Positions 44,346 to 64,000 of a DNA stretch of 64,000 bases are shown here, one piece after another. Under the pieces are notes generated by a model. It ran no database searches and was not told where the DNA came from. It saw only the letters and a list, made by a program, of their open reading frames with translations. This DNA is from Lacipirellula sp. Its GTDB lineage: Bacteria > Planctomycetota > Planctomycetia > Pirellulales > Lacipirellulaceae. Where the stretch lies: positions 1,512,016 through 1,576,015 of the forward strand of contig NZ_CBDIIC010000001.1 of NCBI RefSeq assembly GCF_965279485.1. The letters run 5' to 3'. Position numbers and translations under genes: made by a program. Position 1 is the first letter of the stretch; the number at the start of each line of letters is the position of its first letter.

Positions 44346-44437
44346 CTTGCTTTACGAGAAAGCTTAGCCGCCGTCGACGAACGACGCAGAGCGTCGAGGG
44401 CGGCGTTCCCATGCGGAGCGTGGAAACAAGGTCGGGG

Positions 44438-45323: not shown

Positions 45324-46247
45324 TTAGAGCGCCGCTTCGGCCTGCTTCAGGCTGGCGCGAAACTCGGCCACTTCGCCGGGACGAACGATCACTGCCGGCA
45401 CGTTGAGCTGCCCTTTTCCGGCAGCAGGAAACGCAAGTTTCTCCGCCGAGTGAAAGTAGGCAAGCCGATCGACCGCGAGATAACCGCAGAGGCGGGGATC
45501 ATGGGCGATGATCCCCGCAACCTTGCCGAGTTCCACGAGTTCGAGGGCGGCCTCGCTTTGATCGAAGGTTACGAGCAGCGGCGGATCGGACAAGTCAGCC
45601 ACGGCTGCGGCGAGTTCGGTCGCGGCGCCGAGTCGCAAATCGACGACGACGCGCGGCGAGTGGCGCGAGATCGCGGCGGCGATTTGCTGCGCAGCGGTTC
45701 GCTCGCCTTCAGTGACGAGATGCTTAACAATGCACTTTGATTTCGCTTGAGAGCTTTGTGGGTCGGCGCCCATCCAAAATTTCATCGCATGCTGGAAGCC
45801 TTGGAGCCGTTCGATTGGTAAGGCGCAACAGCGATTGTCGACGATGAGCAAAACGTCGTCGCCGTCGTGCAACAAGCTCGTCACGTACTTCGCGCAGCGA
45901 CGCCCTGCGCCAAAACTGGCTTCGCCGACGTGAAAGGTCTGCGTGGCGCCGCCTGGGCCGTATCCGCAAGTCGCGGTAAATCCCGAAGACCCAGCCATCG
46001 AAAGTTTGCCGCAGCGAGTCTCGCCGGCAGGCGGCCAAGCGATCGAGAGGTCGACGCCGTTCTCGTCGGCTGCAGCCTGGGCGCCCGTAGCCAGCGCTTG
46101 CCAATATTCAGAGTGGCCGCCAGTTAGGAGCACCATCGAGTGCTCCGGGGCGGACACCTGGTAGTCGAGGACCGCCAAGCCCCCCATGCCGGCCGTCATC
46201 ACGGCCATCACGGCAATCGCTCCCAAGGCCAATCGAAGCCCGATCAT
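45324..46247 (-). CDS. Divergent periplasmic-binding-protein type I (RbsB-like)
   Basis: Signal/TM, SEYWQALATGAQAAA, ERLQGF, LVTFDQ..AL.LV..GKV.GII.HDP..GYLAV; start MIGLRL at 46247. Confidence 0.65.
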   Translation of the reverse strand: MIGLRLALGAIAVMAVMTAGMGGLAVLDYQVSAPEHSMVLLTGGHSEYWQALATGAQAAADENGVDLSIAWPPAGETRCGKLSMAGSSGFTATCGYGPGGATQTFHVGEASFGAGRRCAKYVTSLLHDGDDVLLIVDNRCCALPIERLQGFQHAMKFWMGADPQSSQAKSKCIVKHLVTEGERTAAQQIAAAISRHSPRVVVDLRLGAATELAAAVADLSDPPLLVTFDQSEAALELVELGKVAGIIAHDPRLCGYLAVDRLAYFHSAEKLAFPAAGKGQLNVPAVIVRPGEVAEFRASLKQAEAAL

Positions 46248-46752
46248 CGTTCTTCCCTCGGTTGTGGCGAATTTGGTTCCGGCGGCGGCCGCTCGCTGGC
46301 GGATTGGGCAGTGTGCCAGCGAACGGCGCCGCGGTGGGTTAGACGACCGCTGCTGTAGAGTTGATCGCGTCTGGAGGAAAAATCTTGCGGCTTTCTTCCA
46401 AATTCGCTTCCAGTTACTGAGATAGAGAGCCGGCCCGTTGCAAGCGGACTGCAGCAAACGCGAAAAGGGCGGTTTCGCCGCAAAACGGCTGCAGTCACAT
46501 CACTGCAGTGCCGCAGCAGCGAGGTCGGGGTAGAACATTCGCCGGCGTAGCGACGTCTGGTCGGTGAAAATACGGGGAAATTGCCGGTAGTAATTGGCGC
46601 AAGGCAAAACAGAGCGCAGGATATTGAGGCACGACGCGCTGTTAACGACTGCGGGCTTTAGGCGGCCCCCTGGCAGGAACATCGCGGCGCCCGCTGGCCG
46701 CTCCTGTCGACAGCACTCCCCACCTCTGCCGCCTCCGACCCCGCTGGCCACC

Positions 46753-49700
46753 ATGCCGATTCGAGTCGCTCTCCATCACCGCACCGAATACCGCTACGAC
46801 GAGCTCGTTGAGTTCGGCCCCCAGATCGTGCGGCTCCGTCCGGCCCCCCATTGCCGGACGCCGATCACTGCCTATTCGCTCTGGATCGAGCCGTCGGGGC
46901 ACTTCCTCAACTGGCAGCAAGATCCATACGGCAACTTCCAGGCGCGAATCGTCCACCCGAAGCCGTCGGACCACGTGTCGGTGGAAGTGGCGCTGACCGC
47001 TGAGATGACGGTGATCAATCCGTTCGACTTCTTTCTGGAAGACGACGCGACGGAATTTCCGTTCTCGTACGGTCCTGACATGCTGAAGGATTTGATGCCC
47101 TTCTTGCATGTCGCCCCCGCGATGGAGGGTTCGCCCCTGGCGGAATATGTGCGGAAGATCGATCGCCGCAAACGCCGGACGATCGACTTCCTAGTTGAAC
47201 TCAACAGCCAACTGCAGCGCGACATCAGCTATACGATCCGCATGGAGCCGGGCGTTCAGACGTGTGACGAGACGCTGCAAAAGCGGAGCGGCTCGTGCCG
47301 CGACACGGCGTGGCTGCTCGTGAACGTCCTGCGGCGCTGCGGCTTGGCAGCGCGGTTCGTCTCGGGTTACCTCATTCAGCTGACGCCGGACATCAAATCG
47401 CTCGACGGCCCCAGCGGCGCCGAGCACGACTTCACCGACCTCCACGCTTGGACGGAAGTCTTCCTGCCGGGCGCCGGCTGGATTGGCCTCGACCCGACGT
47501 CGGGGTTGATGTGCGGCGAAGGGCATATCCCGCTTGCGTGCACGCCCGATCCGGTCGGTGCCGCCCCGATTTCATTCTCGGCGACCGCCGCGGCGAGCGA
47601 CTTCAAGTTTCATATGGAAGTCACGCGGATCCACGAAGATCCGCGGGTGACGAAGCCCTACTCCGACGAGCAGTGGGAAGCGGTCAACGAACTGGGCAAA
47701 GAAGTCGATCGCCATCTAGCCGCCGGCGACGTGCGGCTGACGATGGGCGGGGAGCCAACCTTCGTGTCGATCGACGACATGGAAGGCGCTGAGTGGAAGA
47801 CCGCGGCGATGGGCCCTAACAAGCGCCGCCTCGCGGGCGATTTGCTCACGCGGATGAAGCACCGCTTCGCACCGGGCGGAATGCTGCACCTCGGCCAAGG
47901 CAAGTGGTATCCGGGCGAACCGCTGCCGCGCTGGTCGTTGAAGTGCTACTGGCGTCGCGATGGCGAACCGATTTGGCGCGACGAGTCGTTGTTTGCCGAT
48001 CCGACGAAGAAGGGCGAACAAACGGTCGACGATGCGCGCCGGTTTGGCCAAGCGCTCGCGGAACGCCTGGGCGTCAAGCCGCAGCATGTGATCGACGGGT
48101 TCGAAGACGTCCTCTACTACGCGTGGAAAGAACGCCGTCTGCCGGCGAACGTCTCGCTGCAAGATTCCAAGCTGGAAAATGCCGAAGACCGCGCGCGGCT
48201 CGCGAAGGTTTTTGAGCAAGGCATTACCTCGCCGGTTGGTTGCGCGTTGCCAATTCGCCGCGTCTGGTGGGCCGATCAGCCTTATTGGGAAAGTGGCGAG
48301 TGGGTCGTCCGCAGCGACGAGATGTTCCTGCTGCCGGGCGATTCGCCGATGGGCTTCCGGCTGCCGATTCAATCGCTCCTGTGGGCGAAACGGCCGGCGA
48401 TTGAGTCGTACGGCTACGCCACCGAACCATTCGCCGAACGCTTTCCGCTGCCGCAATATCAGCGGATGCGCGAAGACATCGCCGCGCGGGCGGGCGTCGG
48501 CGCTCAAGCGCTGCAACCCGCATGGAGCGGCGGCGGTAGCTGGGGTTCAGGGCCTGAAGGCGCCTTCTTCGGCGACTACTCGGGCAACATCGTCGATGGT
48601 TTCTCCGGCAATGGCGGACCGCACGCAGGCAACGGGCAAGCGAACGGCAACGGGAATGGCAGCGGTCCTGGCGCTCCTTGGCTGCAGAATGGCAATAACG
48701 ATTTCCAGGGGCAGCCAGGCAGCGTCCCCGCCGGCGGGCAGCAAGCAGACCCTTCGTGGCTGGTGCGAACGGCACTCTGTATTGAGCCGCGGGACGGCGT
48801 GATCCACATTTTTATGCCGCCGCTCGATCGGCTCGAAGATTACCTCGAATTGGTCACGGCCATTGAAGACACGGCGGCGCAGTTTGGCACGCCGGTCGTC
48901 CTCGAAGGCTACGAACCGCCGCACGATCACCGGATCAACAACTTCAAAGTGACTCCCGATCCGGGCGTGATCGAAGTGAACGTCCAGCCAGCCGAGAACT
49001 GGGACGAGTTGGTGGCGATCACCTCGGGCGTTTACGAGGACGCCCGCTACTCGCGGCTGGGGACGGAGAAGTTCGACCTCGACGGTACGCATACCGGCAC
49101 GGGCGGCGGCAATCACGTTGTCCTCGGCGGCGCCACGCCGGCCGACAGCCCGTTCCTCCGCCGACCTGACGTGCTGCGGAGCTTGCTGGCCTACTGGCAT
49201 AACCACCCGTCGCTGTCGTATCTATTCTCGGGCAGTTTCATCGGCCCGACGAGCCAGGCGCCGCGGGTCGACGAAGGCCGCCGCGACGCTCGCTACGAAC
49301 TGCAGATTGCGATGGAGCAGATCCGCGATCGGCAGAACTATCCCTCGTGGATGGTCGACCGCGTCTTCCGCAATCTGTTGGTCGATGGCACCGGCAACAC
49401 GCATCGCGCTGAATTCTGCATCGACAAGTTGTTCTCGCCCGATAGTTCGACCGGTCGCTTGGGCCTCGTCGAGTTCCGCGCGTTCGAAATGCCGCCGCAT
49501 TGGCGGATGAGCATGGCGCAGCAGCTGCTGCTCCGCTGCCTGGTCGCACGTTTCTGGGAGAAGCCATACACCGCGAAGTTGGTCGATTGGGATACCTCGC
49601 TGCACGACCGGTTCATGCTGCCGCAGTTCGTGCGGCAAGATTTCAACGACATCGTCGATGAAACTCGCCAAGCTGGCTTCGCGATGGAGAAGGCGTGGTT

Positions 49701-50265
49701 TGAGGCGCACTTCGAGTTCCGTTTCCCGCGAATGGGCGAATTTTCTCAAGCTGGGATGCGAATCGAACTGCGGAAAGCGATCGAACCATGGTACGTTCTA
49801 GGGGAAGAGGCGACCGGGACGGGAACGTCGCGCTATGTTGACTCTTCGCTCGAACGTCTGCAGGTACTCGTGCAAGGGATGACTGACAGCCGTCACTACA
49901 TGACGTGCAACGGCCGGAAGGTTCCGCTCCACCCGACGGGAACTGAAGGCGAGTACGTGGCTGGCGTGCGATATCGCGCATGGCAGCCGCCAAGCTGTCT
50001 GCACCCTACAATTCCTGTCGACGCGCCGCTGTCGTTCGATTTGGTCGACGGTTGGATGAACCGTTCGCTCGGAGGCTGCACTTACCACGTGGGGCATCCA
50101 GGCGGATTGAATCCGGAACTGTTCCCGATCAACGCGTTCGAAGCTGAAAGCCGTCGCTACGCCCGCTTCTTCAAGATGGGGCACAGCGGCGGACCGATTT
50201 CCCCGGCGCCAGAAGAACCGAATCCCGATTTTCCGCTAACGCTCGATCTTCGCCGTAACCGATAA
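46753..50265 (+). CDS. Transglutaminase-domain protein fused to DUF2126
   Basis: [21 protein letters not shown] (Cys), [69 protein letters not shown]. Confidence 0.9.
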   Translation: [1170 protein letters not shown]

Positions 50266-50303
50266 TCAGCAGTTGAGACCTCATCCGCGGCGAGAATCCA
50301 CCA

Positions 50304-52823
50304 GTGCCTGGCTCTGACCTACGCGTAGACGCCAAACTGTTCAGCGGCTATTCAGGCGCCGAGGGGTCGTACGACGAAGTATTTTCCGACAAGGGGGAGC
50401 TTCGTCCCGCTTGGCGGCGATTCATCGACGCGACCGAAGGGCTGCCGCGCGCGGAGTTTGGTCGGCGATGGGAGCAGGCGCAGCGACTGCTGCAGCAGAA
50501 TAGCCTCGCTTACCCCGATCCAAGGGATCCGCGCGCTCGTCGGCACCCCTGGGAACTCGACGCCTTCCCGCTGGTGATTCAAGCAGAGGAATGGCGCGAG
50601 GTCGCCGCGGCGCTTAAGCAGCGAGCGACGCTCCTCGACATGGTGCTGCAAGACTTGCTCGGTCCGCAGCGACTGATCAGGGAGGGGCATCTGCCGGCGG
50701 AAGTGGTGTTTCGCCACCCGGGCTTCTTGCTCCCCTACTGCCGCCCCGATGCCACGCCGCAGCAAGTGCTGCACGTCTACGGGGCCGACGTCGCCCGCTC
50801 GCCCGACGGTCGCTGGTGGGTGCTCGACGATCGCTGCGAGTCGCCCTCGGGGGCGGGCTTCGCGCTGCAGAACCGCATCGCGATGTCGCGGATGCTGCCC
50901 GACGTCATTCACGAATGCCGCGTCGAGCGCTTGGCGCCCTACTTCATCTCGTTTCAAGAACACCTCGCTCGCTTGGCGCCTGATCGCGAACGAGCCCGCG
51001 TGGTGTGGCTCAGCCAGCTGGCGGGGAGCGCGAACTATTTCGAAGACGCCTTCCTCGCGCGGTATCTCGGCTACACGCTCGCCGAAGCTGGCGACCTGGC
51101 GGTGCGGCAGAACAAGCTGTATCTGAAGACGCTCGCGGGACTATCGCCGGTCGACGTGTTGATGCGGCGACCGAATAGCGAGAATTGCGATCCTCTGGAA
51201 CTCTCCGATGCGTCCTCGATGGGCGTCGCGGGATTGCTGCAGTCGCTGCGCAGCCGGAACGCCGCAATTGCGAATGGACTTGGAAGCGGGCTGCTCGAGT
51301 CGCCGATCTTCATGGCGTTCCTGCCGCGACTCGCGGAAACGCTGCTGAGCGAACCGTTGAAGATGCCGAACGTCGCCACTTGGTGGTGCGGCGATCCGAA
51401 GAGCAGGAAGTATGTGCTGAGCCGGGTTTCGGAGTTGGCGATTCGGCCCGCCTATCGCCGCCGCGGCGTGAACGATTCGCGGCTCCTAGAACTGAGCCGT
51501 AGCGAACTAACGGCGATGATCGAGGCTCATCCGACGGCGTACGTCGCCCAAGAGCGCGTCCGCCGGTCGACGGCGCCGGTCTGGTCGGGACAGGACGTCA
51601 CCCACTCGTACATTTCGCTGCGGGCGTTCGCTGTCTCCAGCGGCGATAGCTTCGAAGTGATGCCGGGCGGCCTCGCGCGGGTCAGTGCGACGCTCGGCCC
51701 GCTCGACATGTCGCTGCTCGAAGGGGAACGGAGCAAAGATACTTGGGTGCTCTCGGAAGGGCCGGTCAGTTCGGTGACGCTGCTGATCGCCGCCGACGAG
51801 CCGCTTGCGCTGCGCCGCGGCGGCGTCGACTTACCGAGCCGCGCCGCAGAGCACTTCTTCTGGCTGGGGCGGCAATCGGTGCGTGCGGAAACGCTCGGCA
51901 AATTGATTCGCGCCGTGGCGCTGCGACTAACGAGCGAACAAGACGCCGAACGGATCCCCGAGTTGCAGTTGCTGATCCGTGTTCTCGCGGAGCTCGGGCA
52001 AATCGAACCGGGCTACGTCGTCGACGAAATCAAAGTCCAGATGCCGGCGCTCGAAAAGCTGCTGCCTGCTGCCGTGTTCGATGAAAAGACGCCCGGCACG
52101 CTGCGGGCGACGGTCGCGAATCTTGCACAACTTGCGGCGACCGTGCGCGACTTGCTGTCGCTCGATACCTGGCGGATCATCCGCGAGATGAACGACGAGT
52201 TCCAGCCGACGGCGAGCGACGACGGGTTCCTCGATATGCTCGTGAAGGTCGATGGCCTGCTCGCGGGCTTGGCAGCGCTTACCGGCCAGTTCGCTGAGGG
52301 AATGACGCGGACGCACGCGTGGCGGTTTCTCGACTTCGGCCGTCGCCTGGAGCGAACGCTGCAAGCTTCGCAGCTCATTCGCGCCGTCGTCGCTGAAGGG
52401 GGTGGAACCGACGCCGCAGCCCTCGAGTCGCTGCTGGAAGTTTCCGACAGCTTGATGACCTACCGCTCGCGGTACTACTCGCGGTTCCAACTCGGCGCCG
52501 TGCTCGACTTGCTGATGACCGACGAAACGAACCCGCGGTCGATGGCGTTTCAGCTGGTGGAGTGCACTTCGCACGCGGCTCAGTTGCCGCGCGAGTCGAT
52601 CGTCCCGGGGCAGATGACGGAAGAGCGGCTCGCTGCGTCGCTGCTCCACTTGATCCGCCGCGTCGATCCGTTGGCAATCGCTCGCGCGTACGAATCGGGC
52701 GACGAAGAACCGCTCGACTCGCTGCTGACGACGATCGACTCGTCGCTCCCCAAACTGTCGGACGCGGTGTCGCACCACTATTTCTTCCACAGCGGACCTG
52801 CGCAGCGTCTGGCGCGTGACTAG
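50304..52823 (+). CDS. Circularly permuted ATP-grasp type 2 protein fused to alpha-E (DUF403) domain
   Basis: YDE...G.LRP.W, QRATLL, DVARSPDGRWWVLDDR..SPSG, CDPLEL, MPGGLARV, SKDTWV; alpha-E RAAEHFFWLGR..RAE, GRRLER, DETNPRS.AFQ. Confidence 0.9.
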   Translation: MPGSDLRVDAKLFSGYSGAEGSYDEVFSDKGELRPAWRRFIDATEGLPRAEFGRRWEQAQRLLQQNSLAYPDPRDPRARRHPWELDAFPLVIQAEEWREVAAALKQRATLLDMVLQDLLGPQRLIREGHLPAEVVFRHPGFLLPYCRPDATPQQVLHVYGADVARSPDGRWWVLDDRCESPSGAGFALQNRIAMSRMLPDVIHECRVERLAPYFISFQEHLARLAPDRERARVVWLSQLAGSANYFEDAFLARYLGYTLAEAGDLAVRQNKLYLKTLAGLSPVDVLMRRPNSENCDPLELSDASSMGVAGLLQSLRSRNAAIANGLGSGLLESPIFMAFLPRLAETLLSEPLKMPNVATWWCGDPKSRKYVLSRVSELAIRPAYRRRGVNDSRLLELSRSELTAMIEAHPTAYVAQERVRRSTAPVWSGQDVTHSYISLRAFAVSSGDSFEVMPGGLARVSATLGPLDMSLLEGERSKDTWVLSEGPVSSVTLLIAADEPLALRRGGVDLPSRAAEHFFWLGRQSVRAETLGKLIRAVALRLTSEQDAERIPELQLLIRVLAELGQIEPGYVVDEIKVQMPALEKLLPAAVFDEKTPGTLRATVANLAQLAATVRDLLSLDTWRIIREMNDEFQPTASDDGFLDMLVKVDGLLAGLAALTGQFAEGMTRTHAWRFLDFGRRLERTLQASQLIRAVVAEGGGTDAAALESLLEVSDSLMTYRSRYYSRFQLGAVLDLLMTDETNPRSMAFQLVECTSHAAQLPRESIVPGQMTEERLAASLLHLIRRVDPLAIARAYESGDEEPLDSLLTTIDSSLPKLSDAVSHHYFFHSGPAQRLARD

Positions 52824-52836
52824 GGCGGAGCCCGAG

Positions 52837-53724
52837 ATGAAGTACTCAATCAAGCACCGCACTTGGTATGCCTACGCCGAATCGGCGCCGGTCTGCCACA
52901 ACATGCTTCACCTGGCGCCGCGCAACACCCCCTATCAGACTTGCTCCGACTACCGTCTACGGATCGTCCCTGAGCCGGCGCTCATCACGCGTCGGGCAGA
53001 CTGGTTCGGCAACTTCATCGACTATTTTTCGATTGAAGGGGCACACAACGGCCTGGAGATTACCTCGCAAAGCACCGTCAACGTCACGCGGCCGCCGAAG
53101 CTCTCCCCAAGTGAATCGCCCAAGTGGGAGACGATCGCGCAGCTATCGACGGCAGGCACGACAAGCGCCTCGCTGGAGGTCTACCAGTTGACGCTTCGCT
53201 CGTCGCGGGTGCGACCTTCGCAGCAATTGCGGCAATACGCCTTTCCGAGCTTCCCCGCCGGCCGCCCGATTGTTGAAGGCATCATTGACCTGACGGCCCG
53301 CATTCATCGTGACTTCGAATTCGATCCGAAAGCGACGACGGTTCACACTCCGCTGGAGGATCTACTGAAGCTCCGTCGCGGCGTTTGCCAGGATTTTGCG
53401 CATCTCGCGATCGGCTGCATGCGATCGCTGGGGCTGCCGGCTCGGTACGTGAGCGGTTACCTCCGCACGGTTCCGCCGCCAGGCAAACCGCGACTAGTCG
53501 GCGCCGATGCGTCGCACGCCTGGGCCTCGGTCCACTGCGGGCCGCTGGGTTGGGTCGACTTCGACCCAACGAACAACACGCTCATCGGCGAGTCGCATAT
53601 CACCATCGGCTGGGGCCGCGACTACGGCGACGTTTGCCCGATTCAGGGCGTGTTCGTCGGCGGCGGCGAGCACAGCATGGGCGTGAGCGTCGACGTGCTG
53701 CCAGCAGAAGAGAAGGCCGCTTGA
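52837..53724 (+). CDS. Transglutaminase-like protein
   Basis: YSIKHRTWYAY, RRGVCQDFAH, ARYVSGYL, ASHAWASV, DFDPTN, GRDYGDV.P; GGAG upstream of ATG 52837 (alternative GTG 52816). Confidence 0.9.
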   Translation: MKYSIKHRTWYAYAESAPVCHNMLHLAPRNTPYQTCSDYRLRIVPEPALITRRADWFGNFIDYFSIEGAHNGLEITSQSTVNVTRPPKLSPSESPKWETIAQLSTAGTTSASLEVYQLTLRSSRVRPSQQLRQYAFPSFPAGRPIVEGIIDLTARIHRDFEFDPKATTVHTPLEDLLKLRRGVCQDFAHLAIGCMRSLGLPARYVSGYLRTVPPPGKPRLVGADASHAWASVHCGPLGWVDFDPTNNTLIGESHITIGWGRDYGDVCPIQGVFVGGGEHSMGVSVDVLPAEEKAA

Positions 53725-53881
53725 GTCGCCTCTCGCTCTTGCCAAGCCCCGACAGTCGCGGGCTCTACAGCGGTCTTAAGCGAGCGAAACGGCGATTTCC
53801 GCCGATTCGCATCGGTCGGCTGGTTGAGCTATCCTTGAGAGCTTCCGAATCGCTCAACTCGCCACGCCGCCGCGGGATTTC

Positions 53882-54544
53882 ATGGAATACGTTAAGCAGC
53901 TGATCGACCTGTTTCTCCACCTCGACGAACATCTGCGCGAAGTGGTGAACGATTACGGCACGTGGACTTACCTCGTGCTGTTCGTCATCGTGTTCTGCGA
54001 GACGGGGCTCGTCGTCACGCCGATCTTGCCGGGCGACTCGCTGCTGTTCGCGGCGGGGGCGATCGCCGCGCTCGGCTCGCTCAACCCGCATCTGCTCGTG
54101 GTGTTGCTCACCATCGCTGCGATCCTCGGCGATGCGGTGAACTATCAGATTGGCCGCTACATCGGGTCGGCGGTGTTCAAGAAAGAGGACTCGCGGTTCT
54201 TCAAGAAGGCGCATCTCGAGAAGACGCACGCCTTCTACGAACGATACGGCGGGAAGACGATCATCATCGCCCGCTTCGTGCCGATCGTGCGGACCTTCGC
54301 GCCATTCATCGCCGGCGTCGGGCAGATGAGCTACCGGCAGTTTGCGTTGTACAACGTGATCGGCGCGATCTTGTGGGTCGTCATCGGCGTGTACGCTGGC
54401 TACTTGTTTGGCGGACTGAAGATCGTCAAAGAGAATTTTTCACTGATCATCATCGCGATCGTCGGCATCTCGCTGCTGCCGGCGCTCATTGAGATCTGGC
54501 GGGCGAAGCGTCAGCGCAGCGCCACAACGTCGGCAGATGCGTAA
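53882..54544 (+). CDS. dedA: DedA family membrane protein
   Basis: [49 protein letters not shown]. Confidence 0.93.
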
Positions 54545-54585
54545 CTACCGCTTGCACGATGCTCAGCCAGTCTATCTGTTGCGGA

Positions 54586-56049
54586 TCAGCCCGCAGCGGT
54601 GGCAGTTGGTTCGATCTCACGGACTTCGAACCCAGCGCGATCCTCGCGCCGCAGCAGCTTGTTTGCCGCGGCAGCATCGTTGCCGGTGAATTGCTGCGTC
54701 GCCGCGTCGAACGTCAACACTGGCCCCGCTCGGAAGTCGGATTCCGCGGCGCCATGCTCGCGCGCGACCCCCTTCAACTGCTCGACCATGACGAGGGCAT
54801 CTTCAATCACGTGCAATTCTTGGGCAAGTTGCCGAGCTGAGGACGAGTTGCTGGCAGCGCGGTAGGCGACGTTGGCCAGGTTGCACCATTCTGTTGACTC
54901 ATGTCCCATTTTCACCGGCGCGTTAAGCGCTGACGATTTCCCGCTACGCACGGCGTCGACAAAATTCTGCTGGTGCCCTGCCCCGCTGTCGCCCTTGAAC
55001 TTGCGAATCTCCTTACCGTCGACGTCGAACGCCTTCGCTTGGCCGCGCTGACCTTCGAAGCGGCCCCCTTCGCAGTAGACGATGTAGCCGCTGCCCGGCC
55101 CGGGTGACGGCGGCGACGCTTTGCCGCCGACCTTCTCCGGCAAATTGCAGACGGCGACGATCACCGGGTACTTGCCCGTATCGAGCAGCGCGCAGTGGAG
55201 GTTCGGCGTCTCGCCGCAATCGCCTTCGCCGAAGCGACCGCCGCCGGCAACGACGCGGCGCGGGAACGCGACGCTATCTTGGAAGACGTTGTTGCGAACG
55301 TCGTCGAGAATGTGGACGCCCCAGTTGCCCATCTCACCGGAGCCCGTGTTCCACATCCAGTGCCAGTCGTAGTGGAGCGCGTTCCGCATCAGCGGCTCGT
55401 CTTGCGCCGGGCCGAGCCAGAGGTTGTAATCGACGCTCGCCGGCGGCGCGAGCGCCGTGTCGCGCTTGCCGATCGGGCCGCGGACGCCGAAGCGATTCAC
55501 GCGGACCTTCTCGATGGCTCCGAGCGTTTTGTCTTCATGCAGAAACTGCTTGATCTCGGCCTGCATCGGATCGGAACGCTGTTGCGTACCGACTTGGCAC
55601 ACCAGCCCGTAGCGATTGGCTGCGTTAACGACCTGCCGGCCATCCCAGTTCATGTGGCCGAGCGGCTTCTCGACATACACATGCTTGCCCGCTTCGAGGG
55701 CCCAGATTGCCGCAAGACAGTGCCAGTGATTTGGCGTGGCAATCACCACGGCGTCGATGTCTTTCGAGTCGAGCAGTTTCCGCAGGTCGCGATACTTCGC
55801 AGCGCCGTCGTACTCTTTCGCCAACGCATCGACGTGCTGCTCATCGGGATCGCAGAGCGCCGCGACCTTCAGCCCCGGCACTTTGCGAAACGAACGCAGC
55901 AGTTCCGCCCCGCGACCGCCGCAGCCGATGAGACCGATGTTCACCTGCTCGTTGGCGCCGGCAGCCCAGGTAGGACGGACTGAAACCGCTGCAAGGCCGC
56001 CAACCGCGAGCGCGCCGCCCAAGAAATTCCGCCGATTGAAGCTCGCCAT
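54586..56049 (-). CDS. TAT-exported Gfo/Idh/MocA family oxidoreductase
   Basis: NRRNFL, IGLIGCGGRG, IATPNHWH, KHVYVEKP, QVGTQQRS, WLGPA, GEMGNWGVH.LD. Confidence 0.92.
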   Translation of the reverse strand: MASFNRRNFLGGALAVGGLAAVSVRPTWAAGANEQVNIGLIGCGGRGAELLRSFRKVPGLKVAALCDPDEQHVDALAKEYDGAAKYRDLRKLLDSKDIDAVVIATPNHWHCLAAIWALEAGKHVYVEKPLGHMNWDGRQVVNAANRYGLVCQVGTQQRSDPMQAEIKQFLHEDKTLGAIEKVRVNRFGVRGPIGKRDTALAPPASVDYNLWLGPAQDEPLMRNALHYDWHWMWNTGSGEMGNWGVHILDDVRNNVFQDSVAFPRRVVAGGGRFGEGDCGETPNLHCALLDTGKYPVIVAVCNLPEKVGGKASPPSPGPGSGYIVYCEGGRFEGQRGQAKAFDVDGKEIRKFKGDSGAGHQQNFVDAVRSGKSSALNAPVKMGHESTEWCNLANVAYRAASNSSSARQLAQELHVIEDALVMVEQLKGVAREHGAAESDFRAGPVLTFDAATQQFTGNDAAAANKLLRREDRAGFEVREIEPTATAAG

Positions 56050-56298
56050 GAATCGATGTCCTACCAAATAAGGCTGAAAAGCGTGGAAGGTTGTCCACAA
56101 CCGCCCAAGCGCCGCTATTAAGTATTAAAGGCGCCGAGCACGCTCGGTGCAAGCGTCCGACAGTTTTCGTCAGCTTCCTTCTCTGGCCAGCTTTCTTAGC
56201 CCGGTCGTCGCGATGCATTCGCTCCACGCGGAGCCGAATGTATATTGACGAACGGGCTGATTTCGCTGCGATTACTGAATCACTCTTCTACGATCGAA

Positions 56299-57243
56299 AT
56301 GCCGCCGATGAAGACGCCATCGTTCCAGCCGCGCCGTCGCGAATTCCTGGCCGCCGCCGCGGCCATCGGTTCAGCCGCCTACCTTTGCGGCAACGCGACG
56401 GCGGCTGACCGAGCTTCTGAGCCGGCTAAACAAGCCATTCAGTTCTGCGCTTTTGAAAAATTCCTGCAGGACTTAAGTCACGATGAACTCGCGGACGGTC
56501 TCGCCGAGCTGGGATTCAACGGCGTCGAAGTCACGGCCAGGCAAGGGGGTCGGATCACTCCCGAGCGCGCGCAGGAACAGTTGCCGGCGCTCGTCGACGC
56601 CCTCGCGAAGCGGAACCTCGAAGTCACGATCCTCACCACCGAAGTCAACCGCGCCGACGATCCAACGAATGAAAAGCTACTCGCAGCCGCGGCCAAGCTT
56701 GGCATCAAGCGTTACCGACTCGGTTGGTTCAAGTACGCCGATGATCGCCCGATCCCAGCGCAGCTCGCCGGCTACCGCAGCCAGCTGCTCGATCTCGCGG
56801 CGCTGAATCGCGAGCTAGGCATCACTGGTCTCTGGCAAAATCACAGCGGCGAACAGTACGTCGGCGCCACGATTTGGGATCTGCACCAACTCCTGCAGGA
56901 CGTGCCGAAGGAGGAAGTCGCCGCGGCGTTCGACATTCGTCACGCGACCGTCGAAGCGGGCCGATCTTGGCCACGGCTCTACCAATTGATCAAGCCGCAT
57001 ATTGGCGCCCTCTACATGAAGGACTTTGCCTGGTCCGGAAATAGAGACAAACACATAACTTTTGGCAAGGGACGGGTCGAGCCGCGGTACTTTGAAATGC
57101 TGAAGCACGATCGGCTTGAAGCGCCCGTCTCCATCCACGTCGAGTACTTACCGCGCGGGTCGGCCCAAGAAAACCTGCAGGCGATTGGCCGCGACTTCAA
57201 CCGAGTGCGAGAACTGCTGCAAACGGCGAGCGATCAATCTTAG
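56299..57243 (+). CDS. TAT-exported sugar phosphate isomerase/epimerase (TIM barrel)
   Basis: RRREFL, GFNGVEVTAR, QNHSG, FDIRHA, YMKDF, SIHVEY; start 56299 or 56308. Confidence 0.85.
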   Translation: MPPMKTPSFQPRRREFLAAAAAIGSAAYLCGNATAADRASEPAKQAIQFCAFEKFLQDLSHDELADGLAELGFNGVEVTARQGGRITPERAQEQLPALVDALAKRNLEVTILTTEVNRADDPTNEKLLAAAAKLGIKRYRLGWFKYADDRPIPAQLAGYRSQLLDLAALNRELGITGLWQNHSGEQYVGATIWDLHQLLQDVPKEEVAAAFDIRHATVEAGRSWPRLYQLIKPHIGALYMKDFAWSGNRDKHITFGKGRVEPRYFEMLKHDRLEAPVSIHVEYLPRGSAQENLQAIGRDFNRVRELLQTASDQS

Positions 57244-57453
57244 GTTGCGTCGCAGTTCGTCCCACTAGATTGTCCGCGTGCGGCTGTTCCTCAGACTGCC
57301 CTCCTCTCTTCATTCTGCTCCGTCACCTACTGCAAAGACGGGTAAATGAAGTGCTGCCGGCCGTCTGACAGGCCAGCTCCGCTGCAATCCGCCCGCGAGG
57401 CCGCTATCCGGCCAGGGCGGAAGAATTTACATTGAAGTAGATTCGAGACCCCC

Positions 57454-57491
57454 GCCCTCGTAGCTCAGGGGATAGAGCAGCGGTTTCCTAA
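57454..57491 (+). tRNA. 5' half only of tRNA-Arg(CCU), truncated exactly after the anticodon loop
   Basis: GCCCTCG-TA-GCTC-AGGGGATA-GAGC-A-GCGGT-TTCCTAA, then TAGAA instead of the ACCGC needed to close the stem; no T-arm or 3' half seen by eye in the window. Confidence 0.88.
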
Positions 57492-57561
57492 TAGAAAATT
57501 CCCGAGCGGCATTAACGCCAAATCATAGTTTTCTTCGGAAAACGAGCTTTCGGAACCGATA

Positions 57562-57614
57562 ACTGACACCTGCAAACCCTCACCAACATCTGGCTGCGGG
57601 TGTCAGTGACACCC
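57562..57614. repeat. TGACACC motif x3 (direct and inverted), candidate integrase arm-type sites
   Basis: actgacacc 57562-57570, ggtgtcagt 57599-57607, gtgacaccc 57606-57614, 70-120 bp inside the junction. Confidence 0.5.
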
Positions 57615-57828
57615 GCTCAAAACGGCGAGTCACTTAGCCTCGCTCTTCAGTAGACGACTCGCGCGATCTGGCAGCGAATGTTGATTCCGCAGCGTCATTG
57701 CCCCACGCTATTGCGAAGATTTAATCGTGCTCCAAGACAATCCTAGTCTCTGTTGCCTTTGGCTTATCAGCGCAAGGGGCCGCAAACTTCGTCTCGCAGA
57801 CATAGAGCCTGGGGTAGCCACTCCCCCT

Positions 57829-57860
57829 GTTTGACGAGTATCGGGAGTTTGACGAGTATC
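57829..57860 (+). repeat. 14-bp direct repeat with 18-bp period
   Basis: gtttgacgagtatc at 57829 and 57847. Confidence 0.75.
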
Positions 57861-58008
57861 CGGAGACTGTTGAATCGCCTTGCACTCAGCCCACGGTAAC
57901 GGTTTAGGAAGCTAGAGCGGACGCATACTGTCTAGCGTTTATTGGGGCGTGTGACCATATTTGTACCTAGCGGTAAGCGGGTGGCAATTACGGTAGGAAA
58001 TTCGATGG

Positions 58009-58449
58009 TTGGGCGATGCGGCGTTACAAACGGGTGACGCCGTGAGGCATAATATGTTTCAATTCTCTACAGACTTAGCAAAGTATCACCCCATCTCGCT
58101 GCAAGAGGCGAAGTCGACGTTTGCAGATCACGATCCGAAGGGAGTTGTCTTTAAGGTCAATTTGCAGGACTTGCCTACCGCTCTTCAGAAGATTCCAACG
58201 CTAAATGACGCCTACGTTTCAGGGATACAGGACGATATCGGAGCAGCACCAGCTGCGGGAACTCCGCAAGCTGTGATTCTCACCGCTCGTGAGGACGTTA
58301 AAGATGCTCCGGCGACAGGCAACTTGAACGCCTATCTGCTTCTTACAGTGGGTGACAGCGTATTTATGTCACCACCTTGCAACAAACTCGGCTCTCTACC
58401 GCACCATTATTCTGGTCAGTTTCCGCTTGAATCGGTTTTCAAGCCGTAG
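58009..58449 (+). CDS. Hypothetical protein (island)
   Basis: 146-codon ORF in lower-GC DNA; start uncertain (TTG 58009 or internal ATG). Confidence 0.5.
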   Translation: MGDAALQTGDAVRHNMFQFSTDLAKYHPISLQEAKSTFADHDPKGVVFKVNLQDLPTALQKIPTLNDAYVSGIQDDIGAAPAAGTPQAVILTAREDVKDAPATGNLNAYLLLTVGDSVFMSPPCNKLGSLPHHYSGQFPLESVFKP

Positions 58450-58720
58450 AGGGCATCATCAGCTTGAAACGGGTGTCGCCAATTCTCGGCGATTAGCGTT
58501 GTCCGCTCAGGTCTTACCGCCATGCCGCCTTTAGGCTGGTTCAACTATGGAGCCGGTCCGGCAATATAGGGATAGCCAAGGCTCTGAGAAGTCAACAAAA
58601 ACCAGCTGGAAGGCCCAGCGGGCTATTTTGTTGATGTGATTACCCCGAATTTGCCGTTACGCCGCAACTCGCTAAACTGAGCGGTCTGCCATAAGGGCGA
58701 GAGACTTATTGTGTTTAGCG

Positions 58721-59737
58721 ATGGCGCATGACGGGAGAGACAACTTGTACGACGGTGACAGCACTCCCCCTGACTTTGTTGCAACTGGCGAGCGAATTCG
58801 CGTCAAAATCGAAGACCTCTTCTCCAAATACCACACCACGGATTTGCCTCGGGACATTGGGGCTGTGGCCGACTACTTCTCTCATGTCGCAGACGCGATC
58901 GACTATGATCGACTCGAAATCAGGAGTAACCGAGTCCTATTAGGCTATTTCGATACGGTGATGCTTTGGCTGCGTGACAGCCTGCTCGCCTATCCTGATT
59001 CAATTGGTGAACAGGTTTTCTCTCTCGCCCAAGAGAAGCAGCTTCCCGAGGTTATTGGGCTCTTTGCGAATCTCTCCGAACGTCATCTCAGCTACATTCG
59101 GCGCCGGGCGATCTATGGGCGGCTACCGGCCCTTCTGTATATGTTCAGCCGGTTTGCGATTGTTCCGGGCAATGATAGCGAATACGTCACGTCACCAAAG
59201 TTGCTTGACGCGAAAATGGGCCTCAAGCGACTCTCGCAGATTCTTCGCTACGCGGCGTCGATGGAAGTTGTCGAATACGACGAGACGTTTCAGGCATTTC
59301 GGCAACACTACGACCCGAACTTGGTTAACAAGAGCAAGGTGTTGAGCCTTATTCATCTACTAAGGGTGCAAGTTGAAGCGACGCCGGATGAGGCCCATCA
59401 GAAACTCATCCTGAGCAAACTAGAATCAATCGAAGCGGAACTTAAGAAATCTAAAGTCCGCTGGAGTGCTGTGTTCACAGGGTTGATTGTAATTCTCGGG
59501 TTCTTAGCCGACCTCAAGAGCGTCGCGCCGAACGTGTATGACAAGTCTGTCCAGACTGTTGAGGCTATTCTTCACGTCCTTAAAACAGATGGTATGGTGC
59601 AAAATTCCCGAGGTGACTTGCTTCTCGATCACAAGGATTCATCCGATCGCAAGCCGACGGATGGAATACCTGACAACAACGCGATTCTGACTGAACCAGT
59701 AAGGCCGAAGGACGACGACGAACAAGACGAAGAGTAA
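58721..59737 (+). CDS. Hypothetical helical protein with a hydrophobic C-terminal segment (island cassette gene 1)
   Basis: ~338-aa ORF; WSAVFTGLIVILGFLADL segment; acidic tail. Confidence 0.75.
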   Translation: MAHDGRDNLYDGDSTPPDFVATGERIRVKIEDLFSKYHTTDLPRDIGAVADYFSHVADAIDYDRLEIRSNRVLLGYFDTVMLWLRDSLLAYPDSIGEQVFSLAQEKQLPEVIGLFANLSERHLSYIRRRAIYGRLPALLYMFSRFAIVPGNDSEYVTSPKLLDAKMGLKRLSQILRYAASMEVVEYDETFQAFRQHYDPNLVNKSKVLSLIHLLRVQVEATPDEAHQKLILSKLESIEAELKKSKVRWSAVFTGLIVILGFLADLKSVAPNVYDKSVQTVEAILHVLKTDGMVQNSRGDLLLDHKDSSDRKPTDGIPDNNAILTEPVRPKDDDEQDEE

Positions 59738-59771
59738 TTCCCGAACTGCCTATTCTCGCGAGTCACAAGCC

Positions 59772-60005
59772 ATGGGTACGTTTCGCTTTGACGGCAACAA
59801 ATCCGTCGATGACAACTTGGACTCATTTTTTGAGCATCTCAAGGGTGTCAATGCTGAATTCTCGGCAATTCTGAGAGAGGAAATCGGCACGATGATTCCG
59901 CTACCTGAGGGGCAGCGTCGCACAACGGCCCGCACAGCGTTCAGCACAGCGGTCGCTCGGAAATTGGACGGCGAGAAGGGCAGTGCCGCGGAGGCGAAGT
60001 CGTAA
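59772..60005 (+). CDS. Small hypothetical protein (77 aa; island cassette gene 2)
   Basis: Fills the gap between two genes; stop is 1 nt before the ATPase ATG and its 3' end contains that gene's GGAGG. Confidence 0.7.
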   Translation: MGTFRFDGNKSVDDNLDSFFEHLKGVNAEFSAILREEIGTMIPLPEGQRRTTARTAFSTAVARKLDGEKGSAAEAKS

Positions 60006-60006
60006 C

Positions 60007-62511
60007 ATGCCTCGTTACCTGCTTGCCCGACTCAAAATTGACGGCTTCCGCGGTATCAATAACCATGCTGAGCCTCTGGACTTGCGTTTCAAAACCAACG
60101 CCATTAATTCCGTCTTCGGAACCAACGGTCTCGGCAAAAGCTCGATCTTTGACGCTCTGTCGTATGCGATTCGCGGCTGTATTCCAAAGTTAGACGACCT
60201 TCCGGATAGCGACGGTGCGATTGACTACTACTGCAACCTTTTTCATCCAACCGGCACGGCCACGCTAAATCTGACACTATCCCCCGACGATGGCTCGACA
60301 GACATCGAGCTTTGCGTCACTCGCACTTCGGCAGGACAATGCAACGTCACTTCACCGTCAGGCTACGCTGCCCCAGAGCAGCTTTTGCGGTCGCTCAGTG
60401 GGGACTTTGTTCTTCTTGATCAGGGTGCATTTCAGCGTTTCGTTGATGATTCGCCGTTGAAGCGAGGCAGGACGTTCTCAGGGCTCCTGGGCTTGTCGAA
60501 ATTGTCGGAATACCGACAAGCACTGGCCGTCGTTTCCAACCGAGGCAACGTCGGCAATGACTTTCATCTCGCAACACTGGAGACCCAGAAGGATGGCCAC
60601 CGCACTCAATTAAACGCAGCCCATACTCGCATAAGAGAGAATTATCTGCCGCTGCTTGGTGCGGCTCTACCGGACCCTATGGACTGCAATAACGTGCTGC
60701 AAAAGGCTTCGGTCGCATTGTCTGGAGTTGCGTTGGTTGGCGAGCATTTCAAGTCGAAAAGCGTCGACAAAGTAGACTTCGATGCCGTACGAAAGGTTAT
60801 CAAGGGTGCTGAGATGGGGGATGAGCGGCAACGCTTGTCGAACCTGATTCAGTCAATAGCATCACTGGCCAAGCTGGCTCCAGGCGAAACGGAAGCTACA
60901 GAAGTAGCGTCTCTAGGTGAGCTAATCGAAAAGAGAGCAGACGCTCTCGCAAAAACGGGCGGAGCTAAGCTGGAGAGCGTATATAGTGCGGTCGCCAGCC
61001 TCCTAGAGTCAGGGGAGTGGGAGTTTCCGAACAAGTGCCCAGCCTGCGACGCCGAGCGTGAGTTCCCCATTTTGGACCACGTTAACGAGAGGCTATCCCA
61101 CTACGAAACGGCCAACGAATGCCTAACGCAAATCACGGAACTCTGGACAACGGCAGCTTTCGTCCTTCGCACGCGTCGACTTGAGTCCTTAGATGCAATG
61201 GCCATTCCGACTGAGGACCGCAAATTCGACGCTATAGATTCCAAAATCCGCATCGGTGCCATTGATGGCATCACAGTTGCAAAAGTAGTTGAGGCTGTCA
61301 GCGGTGTTGAGCTGAACCGGACCGATCGGGTTAAGGGTTTGGAAGCGGAGCGGGATGAGTTGGAGGGAAAGTTACCTCAATCACTCGTCGAACTAACCAC
61401 ACAAGTTGAACGTGCCGCTGCTATTGAGAAGGATGTAGCCGCTTACAAGCAGCAACAGAAGCAGGAAGCGGCCGTAGCAACGAAGCTGGAGCGACGGACG
61501 AAATGGCAAGAGTTCATCAAATCAGCCTCCGACGACTTTTCGGAAGCGGAAGTAGCACTCTCAACCGCGACCGCCACGGCCGTTGAAAGCGACTATCGCG
61601 AAATGTATGGGGCGATTACGAACAACCCAGACGTTGTACCGGCCTTGAGACGTGCCGGCGGCAGCGAAGAGTTACACCTACGCCTTGAGAAGTTTTATAC
61701 GTTGAACGATCGCTCGGCTTCGACGTTACTGCAAGAGAGCTACCGTAACGCACTTGCGATCTCAATTTTCCTGAGCACTGCACTTAAGTCGAAGTCGCCG
61801 GCACGGTTTATTGTTTTCGATGACATAACATCCAGCTTTGATGCTGGCCACCAATTCGCTCTCATGGAGTTGTTGAGAACGAGAGTAGGCCTACCGGCAA
61901 ACAATCAAGGGCCGCAAGTCATTCTCCTAAGTCACGATGGCTTGTTGGAGAAGTACTTTGACAAGCTATCTGGCGGCACAGACTGGCATCATCAACGGCT
62001 TCAAGGCTCGCCGCCGTGCGGTGCTGTTCTCAGTCAATCCCAAGATGCAGGACGGCTAAAAGCCCTCGCCACGCAACTCTTAACTGCCGGTCAAATTGAT
62101 TTAGCGGAGCACTTGGTTCGTCAGTATCTGGAGTACATGCTGCTCCAAATAATTAGCAAGGTCCGCATTCCCGTGCCACTCGATTTTTCGATTCGCGACG
62201 ACCGGAAGATGGTCGATAACGCGTTGGGTGCAATTAAGGAAGCCGTTGATTTATGCCAGCAAGCTAACGTGTTGGTTATAGATCCTACTCAATCAGCGAA
62301 GCTCATGAACATAATCGTACCTGCTATGGTTGCGAACTCTCTATCGCACTACGCGACTGGCGTGAAGACGCATCTGACCGCTCAAGTCCTGTCTGGATTG
62401 CTGCAAAATGTGGATGACTTCTCCGATTGCTTCTGCTACGACTGCCAGTGCAGCGGATCGACTCAGCGGAGGTATTACAAGTCGCTCACTAAGAAGCATT
62501 GTCCGTGCTAA
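60007..62511 (+). CDS. Rad50/RloC-like ABC ATPase with zinc hook and HEPN-like C-terminal domain (island cassette gene 3)
   Basis: LKIDGFRGI, Walker A GTNGLGKS, CPAC in the coiled coil, degenerate signature LQESYR, Walker B IVFDDITSSFD, H-loop LLSHD, then VRQYLE...NSLSH. Confidence 0.8.
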   Translation: MPRYLLARLKIDGFRGINNHAEPLDLRFKTNAINSVFGTNGLGKSSIFDALSYAIRGCIPKLDDLPDSDGAIDYYCNLFHPTGTATLNLTLSPDDGSTDIELCVTRTSAGQCNVTSPSGYAAPEQLLRSLSGDFVLLDQGAFQRFVDDSPLKRGRTFSGLLGLSKLSEYRQALAVVSNRGNVGNDFHLATLETQKDGHRTQLNAAHTRIRENYLPLLGAALPDPMDCNNVLQKASVALSGVALVGEHFKSKSVDKVDFDAVRKVIKGAEMGDERQRLSNLIQSIASLAKLAPGETEATEVASLGELIEKRADALAKTGGAKLESVYSAVASLLESGEWEFPNKCPACDAEREFPILDHVNERLSHYETANECLTQITELWTTAAFVLRTRRLESLDAMAIPTEDRKFDAIDSKIRIGAIDGITVAKVVEAVSGVELNRTDRVKGLEAERDELEGKLPQSLVELTTQVERAAAIEKDVAAYKQQQKQEAAVATKLERRTKWQEFIKSASDDFSEAEVALSTATATAVESDYREMYGAITNNPDVVPALRRAGGSEELHLRLEKFYTLNDRSASTLLQESYRNALAISIFLSTALKSKSPARFIVFDDITSSFDAGHQFALMELLRTRVGLPANNQGPQVILLSHDGLLEKYFDKLSGGTDWHHQRLQGSPPCGAVLSQSQDAGRLKALATQLLTAGQIDLAEHLVRQYLEYMLLQIISKVRIPVPLDFSIRDDRKMVDNALGAIKEAVDLCQQANVLVIDPTQSAKLMNIIVPAMVANSLSHYATGVKTHLTAQVLSGLLQNVDDFSDCFCYDCQCSGSTQRRYYKSLTKKHCPC

Positions 62512-62590
62512 CATGCTCCGCCCGCGTGGCCTGCCTCAAAATTTAAGAAGAACCTGCCTCCGGCCGCTTGCTCATGCTTGGCGGCTGGGG

Positions 62591-63058
62591 TTACTCAAAG
62601 TTGAGCACGCCGAATCCGTTCAAATGCCTGCGAACGTGAGCGTCTCGTGCCCGCGCGGCTTCTAGTGGCGTGTCGTAGTAGCCGATGTGCTGCCTGACAC
62701 CGTCAATGGTGATCTGGGATCTCCACTTGTCGCCGTGCTTAGTGACGCCGATGTAGCCGCTCGTGTTGTGGCACCCCTTCGGTATGTTGTGACGCTGCTG
62801 AACTCTGGTAGCCGAACGAAGATTGGCGGAGCGATTGTCTAGCGGCTGGCGGTTCCGATGATCCACCCGCCGGCCTCCAGACAAATCAAGCCCCATCAAC
62901 TCAGCTACGATGTGATACAACGCTTGGTAGCTCTCAGTTCCGTCTTCGCGTCGAACCTTCCGGACTGGTCGAAACGAGCCCGAATACGAGCACCGCACCG
63001 CGTGCCACTAGGGGTAACGCGAGAACATCGCATTGAAGGCCCTAGAAGCCTCCCTCAC
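62591..63058 (-). pseudogene. HNH endonuclease-AP2 domain gene, N-terminally disrupted
   Basis: YHIVAE...VDHRNRQPLDNRSANLR (HNH) plus NTSGYIGV...KWRSQI...IGYYDTPLEAARARD (AP2); in-frame TAG at 63008-63010 within SRYP*WHA. Confidence 0.75.
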
Positions 63059-63193
63059 ACTCCCCAGCTATGACCGGCGGCTCTGGCAGGATTGCAATTA
63101 GCGTCGCAGGCACGGCTCTGAGAGCGCCAAGCCTACTATAAGTTGCGTCTAGAATGACTTGGACGGAGATTGAAGCCCCCCCGAGAGGTAAGA

Positions 63194-63588
63194 ATGAGCA
63201 CTCCTTCAACTGGTTCCGAACGTGTGCGGCCCTTCTTGCCAGTCCGCGACTACGACCTGTCGAAGCGGTTCTACGAGGCCCTGGGGTTCGAGATAGTCCT
63301 CGACGGTGAGGCCGCGATCTTCAACGCCGGCTCCGGAGGCTTTATCCTCCAGCGTTACTACCAGAAGGAGTGGGCCGAGAATACGATGCTGCAGCTGTTG
63401 GTCGACGACTTCAACGCCCGGTGGCCCACATCCAAGATCTCGACCTGCCGTCCAAGCCCCCAAGCCCCCAAGCCGCCAGCGCTGCAGCGTTGCAGCGTTG
63501 GGGACAGCGCAGGTGCTACATTAATGATCCGTGCGCGGTGCTCTGGCATGTGTGCCAAAGTCGCGATTCGCAAGTTCAGGACGCGTAA
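63194..63588 (+). pseudogene. VOC/glyoxalase family gene with frameshifts
   Basis: RPFLPVRDYDLSKRFYEALGF...WAENTMLQLLVDD in one frame; AHIQDLDLP and LQRWG..CYINDPCAVLWHV in another frame. Confidence 0.8.
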
Positions 63589-63718
63589 CGCTCCGCGCAC
63601 GCGTTACGATATGCGTCCACCCAGGGTATCGCGTTGGAACTAGTAGTACCGGAACCACCGACATCCCGGCTAGTCACAGCTGCTTTTTTGAACCCGGTGC
63701 GCGCCGCGACAGGCCAAG

Positions 63719-64000
63719 CTACTTCAGCCTGATCAAATCACGACGCGAATCTCGAAAAAGCCTCCGAGCAAATCGGTCTTCGTAAATCCAATTAGCCGCT
63801 AATTCGTTGAATACCCGATTGACCGGCCACTGCAAGCAGTTTCCCAATTCAATCAACTTTCCATACGATGACTCGTCCATCACTGGTACCCAACGCGAAT
63901 TCCCGCTCTTCGCCGGACATAGACAAACAAATGTTACGATGCTGAATTGACTCATCAAAAAGCGTTTCCTGCGTCTGCCAAATGTTGTTATCCGGGTCTC
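63719..64000 (-). CDS. Possible 3' end of a gene entering from beyond the window
   Basis: The frame of ORF 63719-63958 stays open to position 64000; no recognisable motif. Confidence 0.3.
   Translation of the reverse strand, partial: ETRITTFGRRRKRFLMSQFSIVTFVCLCPAKSGNSRWVPVMDESSYGKLIELGNCLQWPVNRVFNELAANWIYEDRFARRLFRDSRRDLIRLK

Follow-up and report, generated by a model that had tools for sequence, protein, structure and literature searches.

The window, the 64,000-nucleotide stretch of DNA analysed here, spans C1:1512016-1576015 of a 7.0 Mb genome assembled in two contigs, and coordinates without a prefix refer to it. A host gene for a xylose isomerase-like TIM barrel protein (AP_endonuc_2, Pfam PF01261, E=3.9e-20) lies at 56245..57243 on the + strand. 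In same-genus genomes this gene adjoins tRNA-Arg(CCT), with matches of 71-83% identity in G019, G020, G021 and G027. In the window it is followed at 57454-57491 (+) by positions 1-38 of a tRNA-Arg(CCU), which stop at the final base of the anticodon loop. The half reads GCCCTCG-TA-GCTC-AGGGGATA-GAGC-A-GCGGT-TTCCTAA. In order, these segments form the 5' side of the acceptor stem, the D arm, the 5' side of the anticodon stem (57480-57484) and a loop of 7 nt (TTCCTAA, 57485-57491) in which CCT at 57487-57489 is the anticodon, all on the + strand. The half matches the start of the one credible tRNA-Arg(CCT) gene in this genome at 38 of 38 positions, and after 57491 the sequence is unrelated, beginning TAGAAAAT. 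Because neither ARAGORN nor Rfam called a tRNA over the whole window, the 3' half is truly missing at this junction, and the original prediction of a perfect 5' half without its 3' counterpart is borne out. Its description of 57454-57620 as leading into foreign sequence holds in part: the DNA after 57491 is unrelated to the tRNA, but it is not random, since 57492-57620 is the left arm of the att site of an island (island 1) and contains three copies of a rare 7-mer. The half tRNA in the window is a left scar (attL), not a broken gene.

The intact tRNA-Arg(CCT) was located by a whole-genome ARAGORN search at C1:1638046-1638119, on the strand of the window and 68.6 kb downstream, and scores 67 bits against Rfam RF00005. 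The search for another tRNA-Arg(CCU) that had been suggested for this locus thus ends in one credible gene. A second ARAGORN call for tRNA-Arg(cct), at G000 C2:4211693-4211789 (-), is 97 nt long, has a sequence unlike tRNA and is probably a false positive. The 38-nt half is present as an exact repeat at C1:1569469 (window 57454), C1:1603450-1603487 and C1:1638046-1638083, with all three copies co-oriented. Each stops as a repeat at the last loop base, and only the copy at C1:1638046 runs into a full tRNA, which contains the sole 3' half in the genome. Three co-oriented exact matches of 38 nt ending at the same base are far beyond chance. Directly 3' of the intact gene lies host flank, 82% identical to the right flank in G020. 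The 7 nt before the repeat, GACCCCC, are also common to 57447-57453 and C1:1603443-1603449, which extends the identity of these two copies to 45 nt. This 7-mer is not shared by island 2, and its sharing could be due to extended attP/attB homology or to gene conversion.

The repeats delimit two intervals, island 1 of 34.0 kb and island 2 of 34.6 kb. The left 6.5 kb of island 1 (57492..64000) fall within the window, where they are marked by a drop in GC content, by their ORFs and by Pfam matches, and the element continues to C1:1603449. GC content is 55.1% in island 1 and 57.5% in island 2, as against 61.4% in the genome. Compared as DNA, the two islands have nothing in common except the att repeat, which was likewise the sole match when DNA relatedness was sought among islands 1 and 2 and the islands of the relatives G023 and G024. 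Pfam recognised no phage structural genes in islands 1 and 2, and both elements are genomic islands rather than prophages.

A genome-wide PF00589 search found one tyrosine integrase per island. Int1 (385 aa; C1:1602122-1603279, L002:15122-16279, - strand) and int2 (425 aa; C1:1636588-1637865, - strand) each occupy the right end of their island, are 46% identical to each other and match PF00589 only in Pfam. Both genes start 170-180 bp from the right-hand repeat and are divergent from the tRNA 5' half. The arrangement agrees with the definitions of the Islander database: an intact tDNA and its co-oriented cognate fragments lie on one replicon, both 5' fragments are upstream (left) of the + strand intact tRNA, each island contains PF00589 and has a length within 2-200 kb, and each tandem member has its own integrase and fragment.

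Four public runs (X1-X4) contain the locus in the form of unitigs with k=31, which end at the 38-nt repeat and cannot link contexts across it; a search of these unitigs for excision products or an empty site gave no joint, and the order of the three repeats is as in the deposited two-contig assembly. The reads contain every one of the three left and three right contexts of the repeat, whose node has a depth of about 3x. Over window positions 44100-64000, the depth of island 1 relative to the chromosomal flank was about 2x (2.1x) in run X1 and about 1x in X2. Because adjacent chromosomal unitigs also differ by 30-40%, the excess in X1 is not readable as an extrachromosomal copy.

The first larger ORFs of island 1 are found at 58009-58449, 58709-59737 and 59983-62511, the last encoding an SMC/AAA-type ATPase of 842 aa (SMC/AAA_23/AAA_13 in Pfam). 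Beyond the window, at C1:1578103-1590366 (L097:103-12363, +), island 1 encodes an RHS/DUF6531 protein of 4087 aa with beta-helix, FG-GAP and DUF6531 matches and 15 RHS-repeat stretches, the predicted architecture of which is polymorphic-toxin-like. A WD40-like protein, a PQQ_2 protein and, near int1, an AAA_25/DnaB-like protein are also encoded there. Island 2 contains mostly unknown proteins, along with DUF4142 and a large dockerin-containing protein, and the ORF abutting int2 has a weak, excisionase-like match to HTH_17.

In order to compare the locus among relatives, the hypothetical empty site, consisting of the two joined flanks, was searched in 30 genomes and the loci were then read. In G019, G021 and G027 the left-flank gene leads through the native upstream region into an intact tRNA-Arg(CCT) with no island, which represents the unoccupied site. 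G023 and G024 contain isolated 5' halves of 38-39 nt, as in the window, and the intact copy of G023 is preceded by arm-type boxes. G020 has a classical-polarity island of about 50 kb within tRNA-Arg(CCT) (L111, C1:2105296-2155516). There, the intact tRNA adjoins the native box described below, a PF00589 integrase (L115:18039-19247) is convergent on the tRNA 3' end, and a 3' fragment about 50 kb away starts at the loop (...TTTCCTAAACCG...) and runs through the 3' end. Another 14 kb separates this fragment from the conserved right flank. The G020 integrase was considered as a member of the int1/int2 family and rejected, as it had no tblastn match and is a distinct PF00589 protein. A comparison of sister strains, which had been proposed as a check, therefore recovers empty sites, reverse halves and a classical island at one tRNA gene.

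The heptamer GGTGTCA occurs 178 times in 7 Mb (both strands), yet it is clustered at every island end. The candidate sites in the left arm of island 1 are TGACACC at 57564-57570 and the palindrome GGTGTCA-G-TGACACC at 57599-57613, and island 2 carries GGAGTCACTGACTCC at the equivalent left-arm distance, +109 to +125 from its core. In both islands the palindromic pair is located about 108-125 nt past the loop, and a direct pair of GGTGTCA precedes the element-borne 5' half, at -76/-64 in island 1 and -79/-65 in island 2. These boxes are most simply interpreted as putative arm-type integrase sites. A further motif, CGGCTTTTCTAGGCTC or near variants of it, is found about 45 nt past the core in the left arm of island 2 (C1:1603530-1603545), in the G024 island (L113) and at locus L026, and may represent another protein-binding site in attP.

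The identity block of islands 1 and 2 stops at 57491, the 3' end of the loop. Both attPs lack the 3' strand of the anticodon stem and have TAGAA and GGGGG in place of ACCGT. Because attP is without this strand, the usual symmetry of an anticodon-loop core, with both stem strands round the loop, is found only in attB, where it exists by the nature of a tRNA. The reverse block covers tRNA positions 1-38 and the classical block of G020 starts at position 31/32 and extends through the 3' end; the two overlap in TTCCTAA only. This overlap is the best evidence at hand for strand exchange within the anticodon loop, and from the ends of the identity blocks we infer that TTCCTAA at 57485..57491 (+) is the probable crossover segment. 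The claim that an integrase crosses over in this 7-nt loop is supported to the extent that the identity blocks meet there.

A scan with one genome per species revealed 56 loci with relatives of int1 and int2, nearly all of them in Planctomycetota MAGs. At about 36 of the 56, a tRNA gene occupies the strand opposite the integrase gene and begins 150-280 bp upstream of it, and the divergent tRNAs include Arg (ACG, CCT and TCT), Lys, Met, Ser, Gln, Leu, Val, Thr and Ile. Ten other islands were followed on long contigs. In eight of them a 5' tRNA fragment lies 10-61 kb past the integrase; these fragments begin at position 1 and end 0-3 nt past the anticodon loop. The remaining two are a degenerate remnant and an island (G003 C24) with no 5' fragment within 78 kb. 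The attP layout is conserved, with a direct pair of GGTGTCA 65-80 nt before the element-borne 5' half and a palindromic pair about 110-125 nt past the core, and the GGTGTCA pair precedes the element-side tRNA in almost all family loci. L019 and L040 have no intact tRNA, only arm boxes followed by a 5' half, and in L019 the palindrome of a next island follows the half; on these grounds both are regarded as internal members of tandem arrays, like island 1. The tRNA of L014 is exceptional in being co-oriented with the integrase.

In the present genome (G000), four of the five family members are divergent to a tRNA 5' end. At G000 C2:4229520-4231598, a classical-type integrase is convergent on the 3' end of tRNA-Ser(GCT) (C2:4230273-4230362, -) and a family member is divergent from its 5' end, so that one tRNA gene appears to serve integrases on either side. 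In L045 (CAVULO010000005.1), from a MAG labelled Alphaproteobacteria, a tRNA-Val(CAC) has a divergent family member that shares 58% identity with int1; this reflects either spread past Planctomycetota or a binning or labelling issue.

According to our analysis, the half tRNA is very probably an attL scar left by two islands in tandem, both of which use tRNA-Arg(CCU) in reverse polarity and recombine in its anticodon loop. Our grounds are the three exact copies of the repeat, the homology of the two integrases, the empty site seen in relatives and the family geometry with its arm sites. The attP of each island of about 34 kb would carry tRNA positions 1-38 and about 180 bp of its own upstream DNA, beside the divergent integrase gene. 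After recombination in the loop, the left arm of the island would follow the native upstream region and the native 5' half, giving the dead half in the window, and the native 3' half would follow island upstream DNA and the island-borne 5' half, so that the gene is whole at the integrase end. Island 1 was probably integrated first, with island 2 then using the regenerated gene. The single functional tRNA-Arg(CCU) would now be the one at C1:1638046, with island 2 DNA upstream. The first of two options in the original prediction, a tRNA rebuilt at the far end with the 5' half and upstream DNA of the element, agrees with the intact gene at C1:1638046 and its adjacent integrase. The suggested downstream search accordingly finds the 3' half there, preceded by a 5' half. 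A single element had been assumed; an integrase island in the tRNA is indeed present, but the tandem pair was missed. An intact copy at the other end had also been named as the outcome that would reduce the case to a 5'-duplicating integration, and to this it is now reduced.

The second option was a tRNA-Arg(CCU) split by an element and whole only on excision. Genes of this kind include those interrupted by the cyanobacterial nifD/fdxN/hupL elements and the sigK skin. Such a switch would account for the 3' half missing at the junction and for the window without a tRNA call, but an interrupted gene has no intact counterpart as long as its element is in place, and here the integrated array has at its far end a complete tRNA-Arg(CCT) with a good score. 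The same design moreover recurs with many tRNA identities, always with the intact gene beside the integrase, and we regard the switch as refuted. The functional copy at the integrase end, with element DNA upstream, would also be expected if the element destroyed the host gene and carried a complete replacement tRNA-Arg, as in the tRNA-dependent lysogeny of some phages. Elements of that class have a full tRNA inside them and leave orphan 5' and 3' halves, whereas here the one 3' half in the genome is inside the intact gene with host flank directly after it and no orphan 3' half exists, which makes a replacement tRNA very unlikely. It is extremely unlikely that the half is a simple tRNA pseudogene, a duplication relic or an assembly artefact that arose without site-specific recombination. 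The linkage across the 38-nt repeat does rest on the deposited assembly, as short-read unitigs cannot bridge it, but all repeat contexts are present in the reads at the matching node depth, the boundaries are base-exact, integrases and arm sites are where they are expected, and sister genomes show both empty and occupied sites.

Reverse-polarity integration with the exchange elsewhere in the 38-nt block, for example in the D arm, deserves separate consideration. The sequence alone confines the crossover to the shared block only, and an attP lacking the 3' stem strand would leave the loop without symmetric core sites in the element. Against this, the block ends at the loop 3' edge plus 0-3 nt in about ten independent islands at different tRNAs, the classical block of G020 begins at the loop 5' edge, and a whole functional 5' half is required on the element only if the exchange takes place at or after the loop. 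Exchange elsewhere in the block therefore seems unlikely. The arrangement found for islands 1 and 2, with element DNA upstream of the regenerated gene and the native upstream region on the fragment, is that of reverse-polarity integration, and we retain loop recombination by a tandem island pair as the explanation of the half tRNA.

Tyrosine recombinases share the catalytic set R-K-H-R-H/W-Y. Searched alone against the PDB, int1 gave only a spurious match to a sorting nexin, and a family profile was needed. The active site was therefore aligned using a profile of 22 members of the int1/int2 family, which matches XerA (E=5e-10) and XerD (E=2e-7). In this alignment the canonical Lys, Arg-II, His and Tyr are matched by K248, R326, H348 and Y357. 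Where Arg-I aligns, the family has an invariant Gly (G223) within the motif G-x-G-N-x-D-C (int1 residues 219-226), the His-I position is taken by an invariant Tyr (Y323), and invariant R246 and R253 lie on either side of the catalytic-Lys position K248. The predicted pocket of the family is thus atypical for tyrosine recombinases, with the aligned Arg-I and His-I missing. In Bacteroides IntDOT, the 'missing' Arg comes from another position.

The native upstream region contains the box TTTACATT at 57426..57433 (+), 21-28 nt before the tRNA +1, which is conserved as cTTTACATTgAG before the intact tRNA-Arg(CCT) in G019, G020 and G021 and is a candidate native promoter element. Within the array the box is found only at the half in the window, and the other two copies have an integrase gene and arm boxes upstream instead. 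A sigma-70 consensus scan of the tRNA strand upstream of the native and island-borne copies gave no match, and upstream of the element-side tRNA there are A/T-rich boxes only. The rebuilt tRNA would, we infer, be transcribed from an island-borne promoter. No terminator was predicted between the half in the window and the first three larger ORFs of island 1 (58009-62511), and these ORFs have the same orientation as the native tRNA upstream region. Because the native box is retained, no terminator is predicted and these genes are co-oriented, it is plausible that the native promoter reads into island 1.

On the integrase strand the arm box reads TTGACACC. A match to TTGACA-16/18-TAnnnT with its -35 within the arm box is present at 25 of 43 family loci, among them those of islands 1 and 2, as compared with 0.17 in shuffles, and this candidate integrase promoter sits 100-150 nt upstream of the gene. 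At L004:14946-14974 (-), for example, it reads TTGACA-17-TAGCAT, with the -35 in one arm box and a second box in the spacer. Integrase bound to the arm sites could thus repress its own promoter.

The codon AGG is used 2.3 times per 1000 codons in host ORFs and 7-8 times in islands 1 and 2 (about 3x), and makes up 9-10% of Arg codons in the long ORFs of both islands, as against 2.8% in the host; these counts are approximate, the host being represented by C1:1-1500000 and ORFs being taken from stop to stop. The excess fits an interest of the islands in tRNA-Arg(CCU), but it is not specific because the integrase family targets many tRNAs.

Taken further, these features could mean that the int1/int2 family is a Planctomycetota-wide, obligately reverse-polarity clade, perhaps with Arg-I supplied from the beta-hairpin. 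Its attP would be a compact divergent control region in which the GGTGTCA sites set integration, repress the integrase gene and adjoin an element-borne tRNA promoter, and the islands would take over tRNA transcription and capture the strong native promoter for their co-oriented far-end cargo. We regard this extended reading as speculative and rather doubtful in its entirety. If it were true, the islands would take over the transcription of a rare-codon tRNA whose codon, AGG, they use about three times more than the host.

For this genome, tRNA-Arg(CCU) is settled as intact and two islands of about 34 kb are precisely delimited, which is useful for annotation; one of them contains the giant RHS protein and candidate defence genes. 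The use of one anticodon loop in both polarities by sister species offers a natural comparison that supports the loop-crossover model. A whole integrase clade appears to be committed to the minority polarity, with the element, not the host, supplying the upstream region of an essential-type gene. Planctomycetota are hard to manipulate, and the clade could be drawn on for genetic tools in this phylum, as a source of integrases whose attB sites in tRNA genes are conserved and well defined. The reverse-polarity tandem islands do not overturn current understanding.

In the classification of tDNA integrases by Williams in 2002, the anticodon loop is reportedly sublocation 'A'. Islands 1 and 2 resemble classical anticodon-loop elements such as the G020 island in that a PF00589 integrase recombines attP with attB and the identity blocks meet at the same tRNA-Arg(CCU) loop. 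While classical elements carry the stretch from the loop to the 3' end and keep the native promoter, islands 1 and 2 carry positions 1-38 and replace the upstream region. The promoter of KplE1 IntS is said to overlap the arm-type sites of the integrase, allowing negative autoregulation; the candidate overlap seen here, with TTGACACC as the -35 at 25 of 43 loci, is a sequence-based likeness by analogy only.

The arrangement had been taken as unprecedented, but tDNA islands with a 5' fragment are already documented (PMC4383910; PMC6563490). As far as it is summarised in later papers, an element of Mesorhizobium loti integrates into a tRNA gene in reverse orientation (Zhao and Williams, 2002, via PMC6563490 and PMC1635311). 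The Islander database lists 159 of 3919 islands with a 5' tDNA fragment as well as 125 tandem arrays, and has the anticodon loop as a standard crossover sublocation (2083 of 3919 islands; PMC4383910). Like the M. loti and Islander 5'-fragment islands, islands 1 and 2 displace a 5' piece of the tDNA and regenerate the gene with an element-borne 5' sequence and upstream DNA, and like the Islander tandems they each have their own integrase and fragment. They differ from these cases in their Planctomycetota host and their divergent integrase family, in which reversed polarity, the divergent geometry of integrase and tRNA and the GGTGTCA sites appear to be clade-wide. A literature search gave no earlier account of this Planctomycetota family. 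Recombination at the 5'-distal side has been described as 'considerably less frequent' than at the 3'-distal side, with archaeal cases such as CalSub-E1 (Krupovic et al., 2019; PMC6563490). The islands share 5'-distal recombination with these archaeal elements, which belong to another domain of life, use other integrase types and have no evident relationship to them. The mode of integration is thus rare but already described, and islands 1 and 2 are a further case of a known minority kind.
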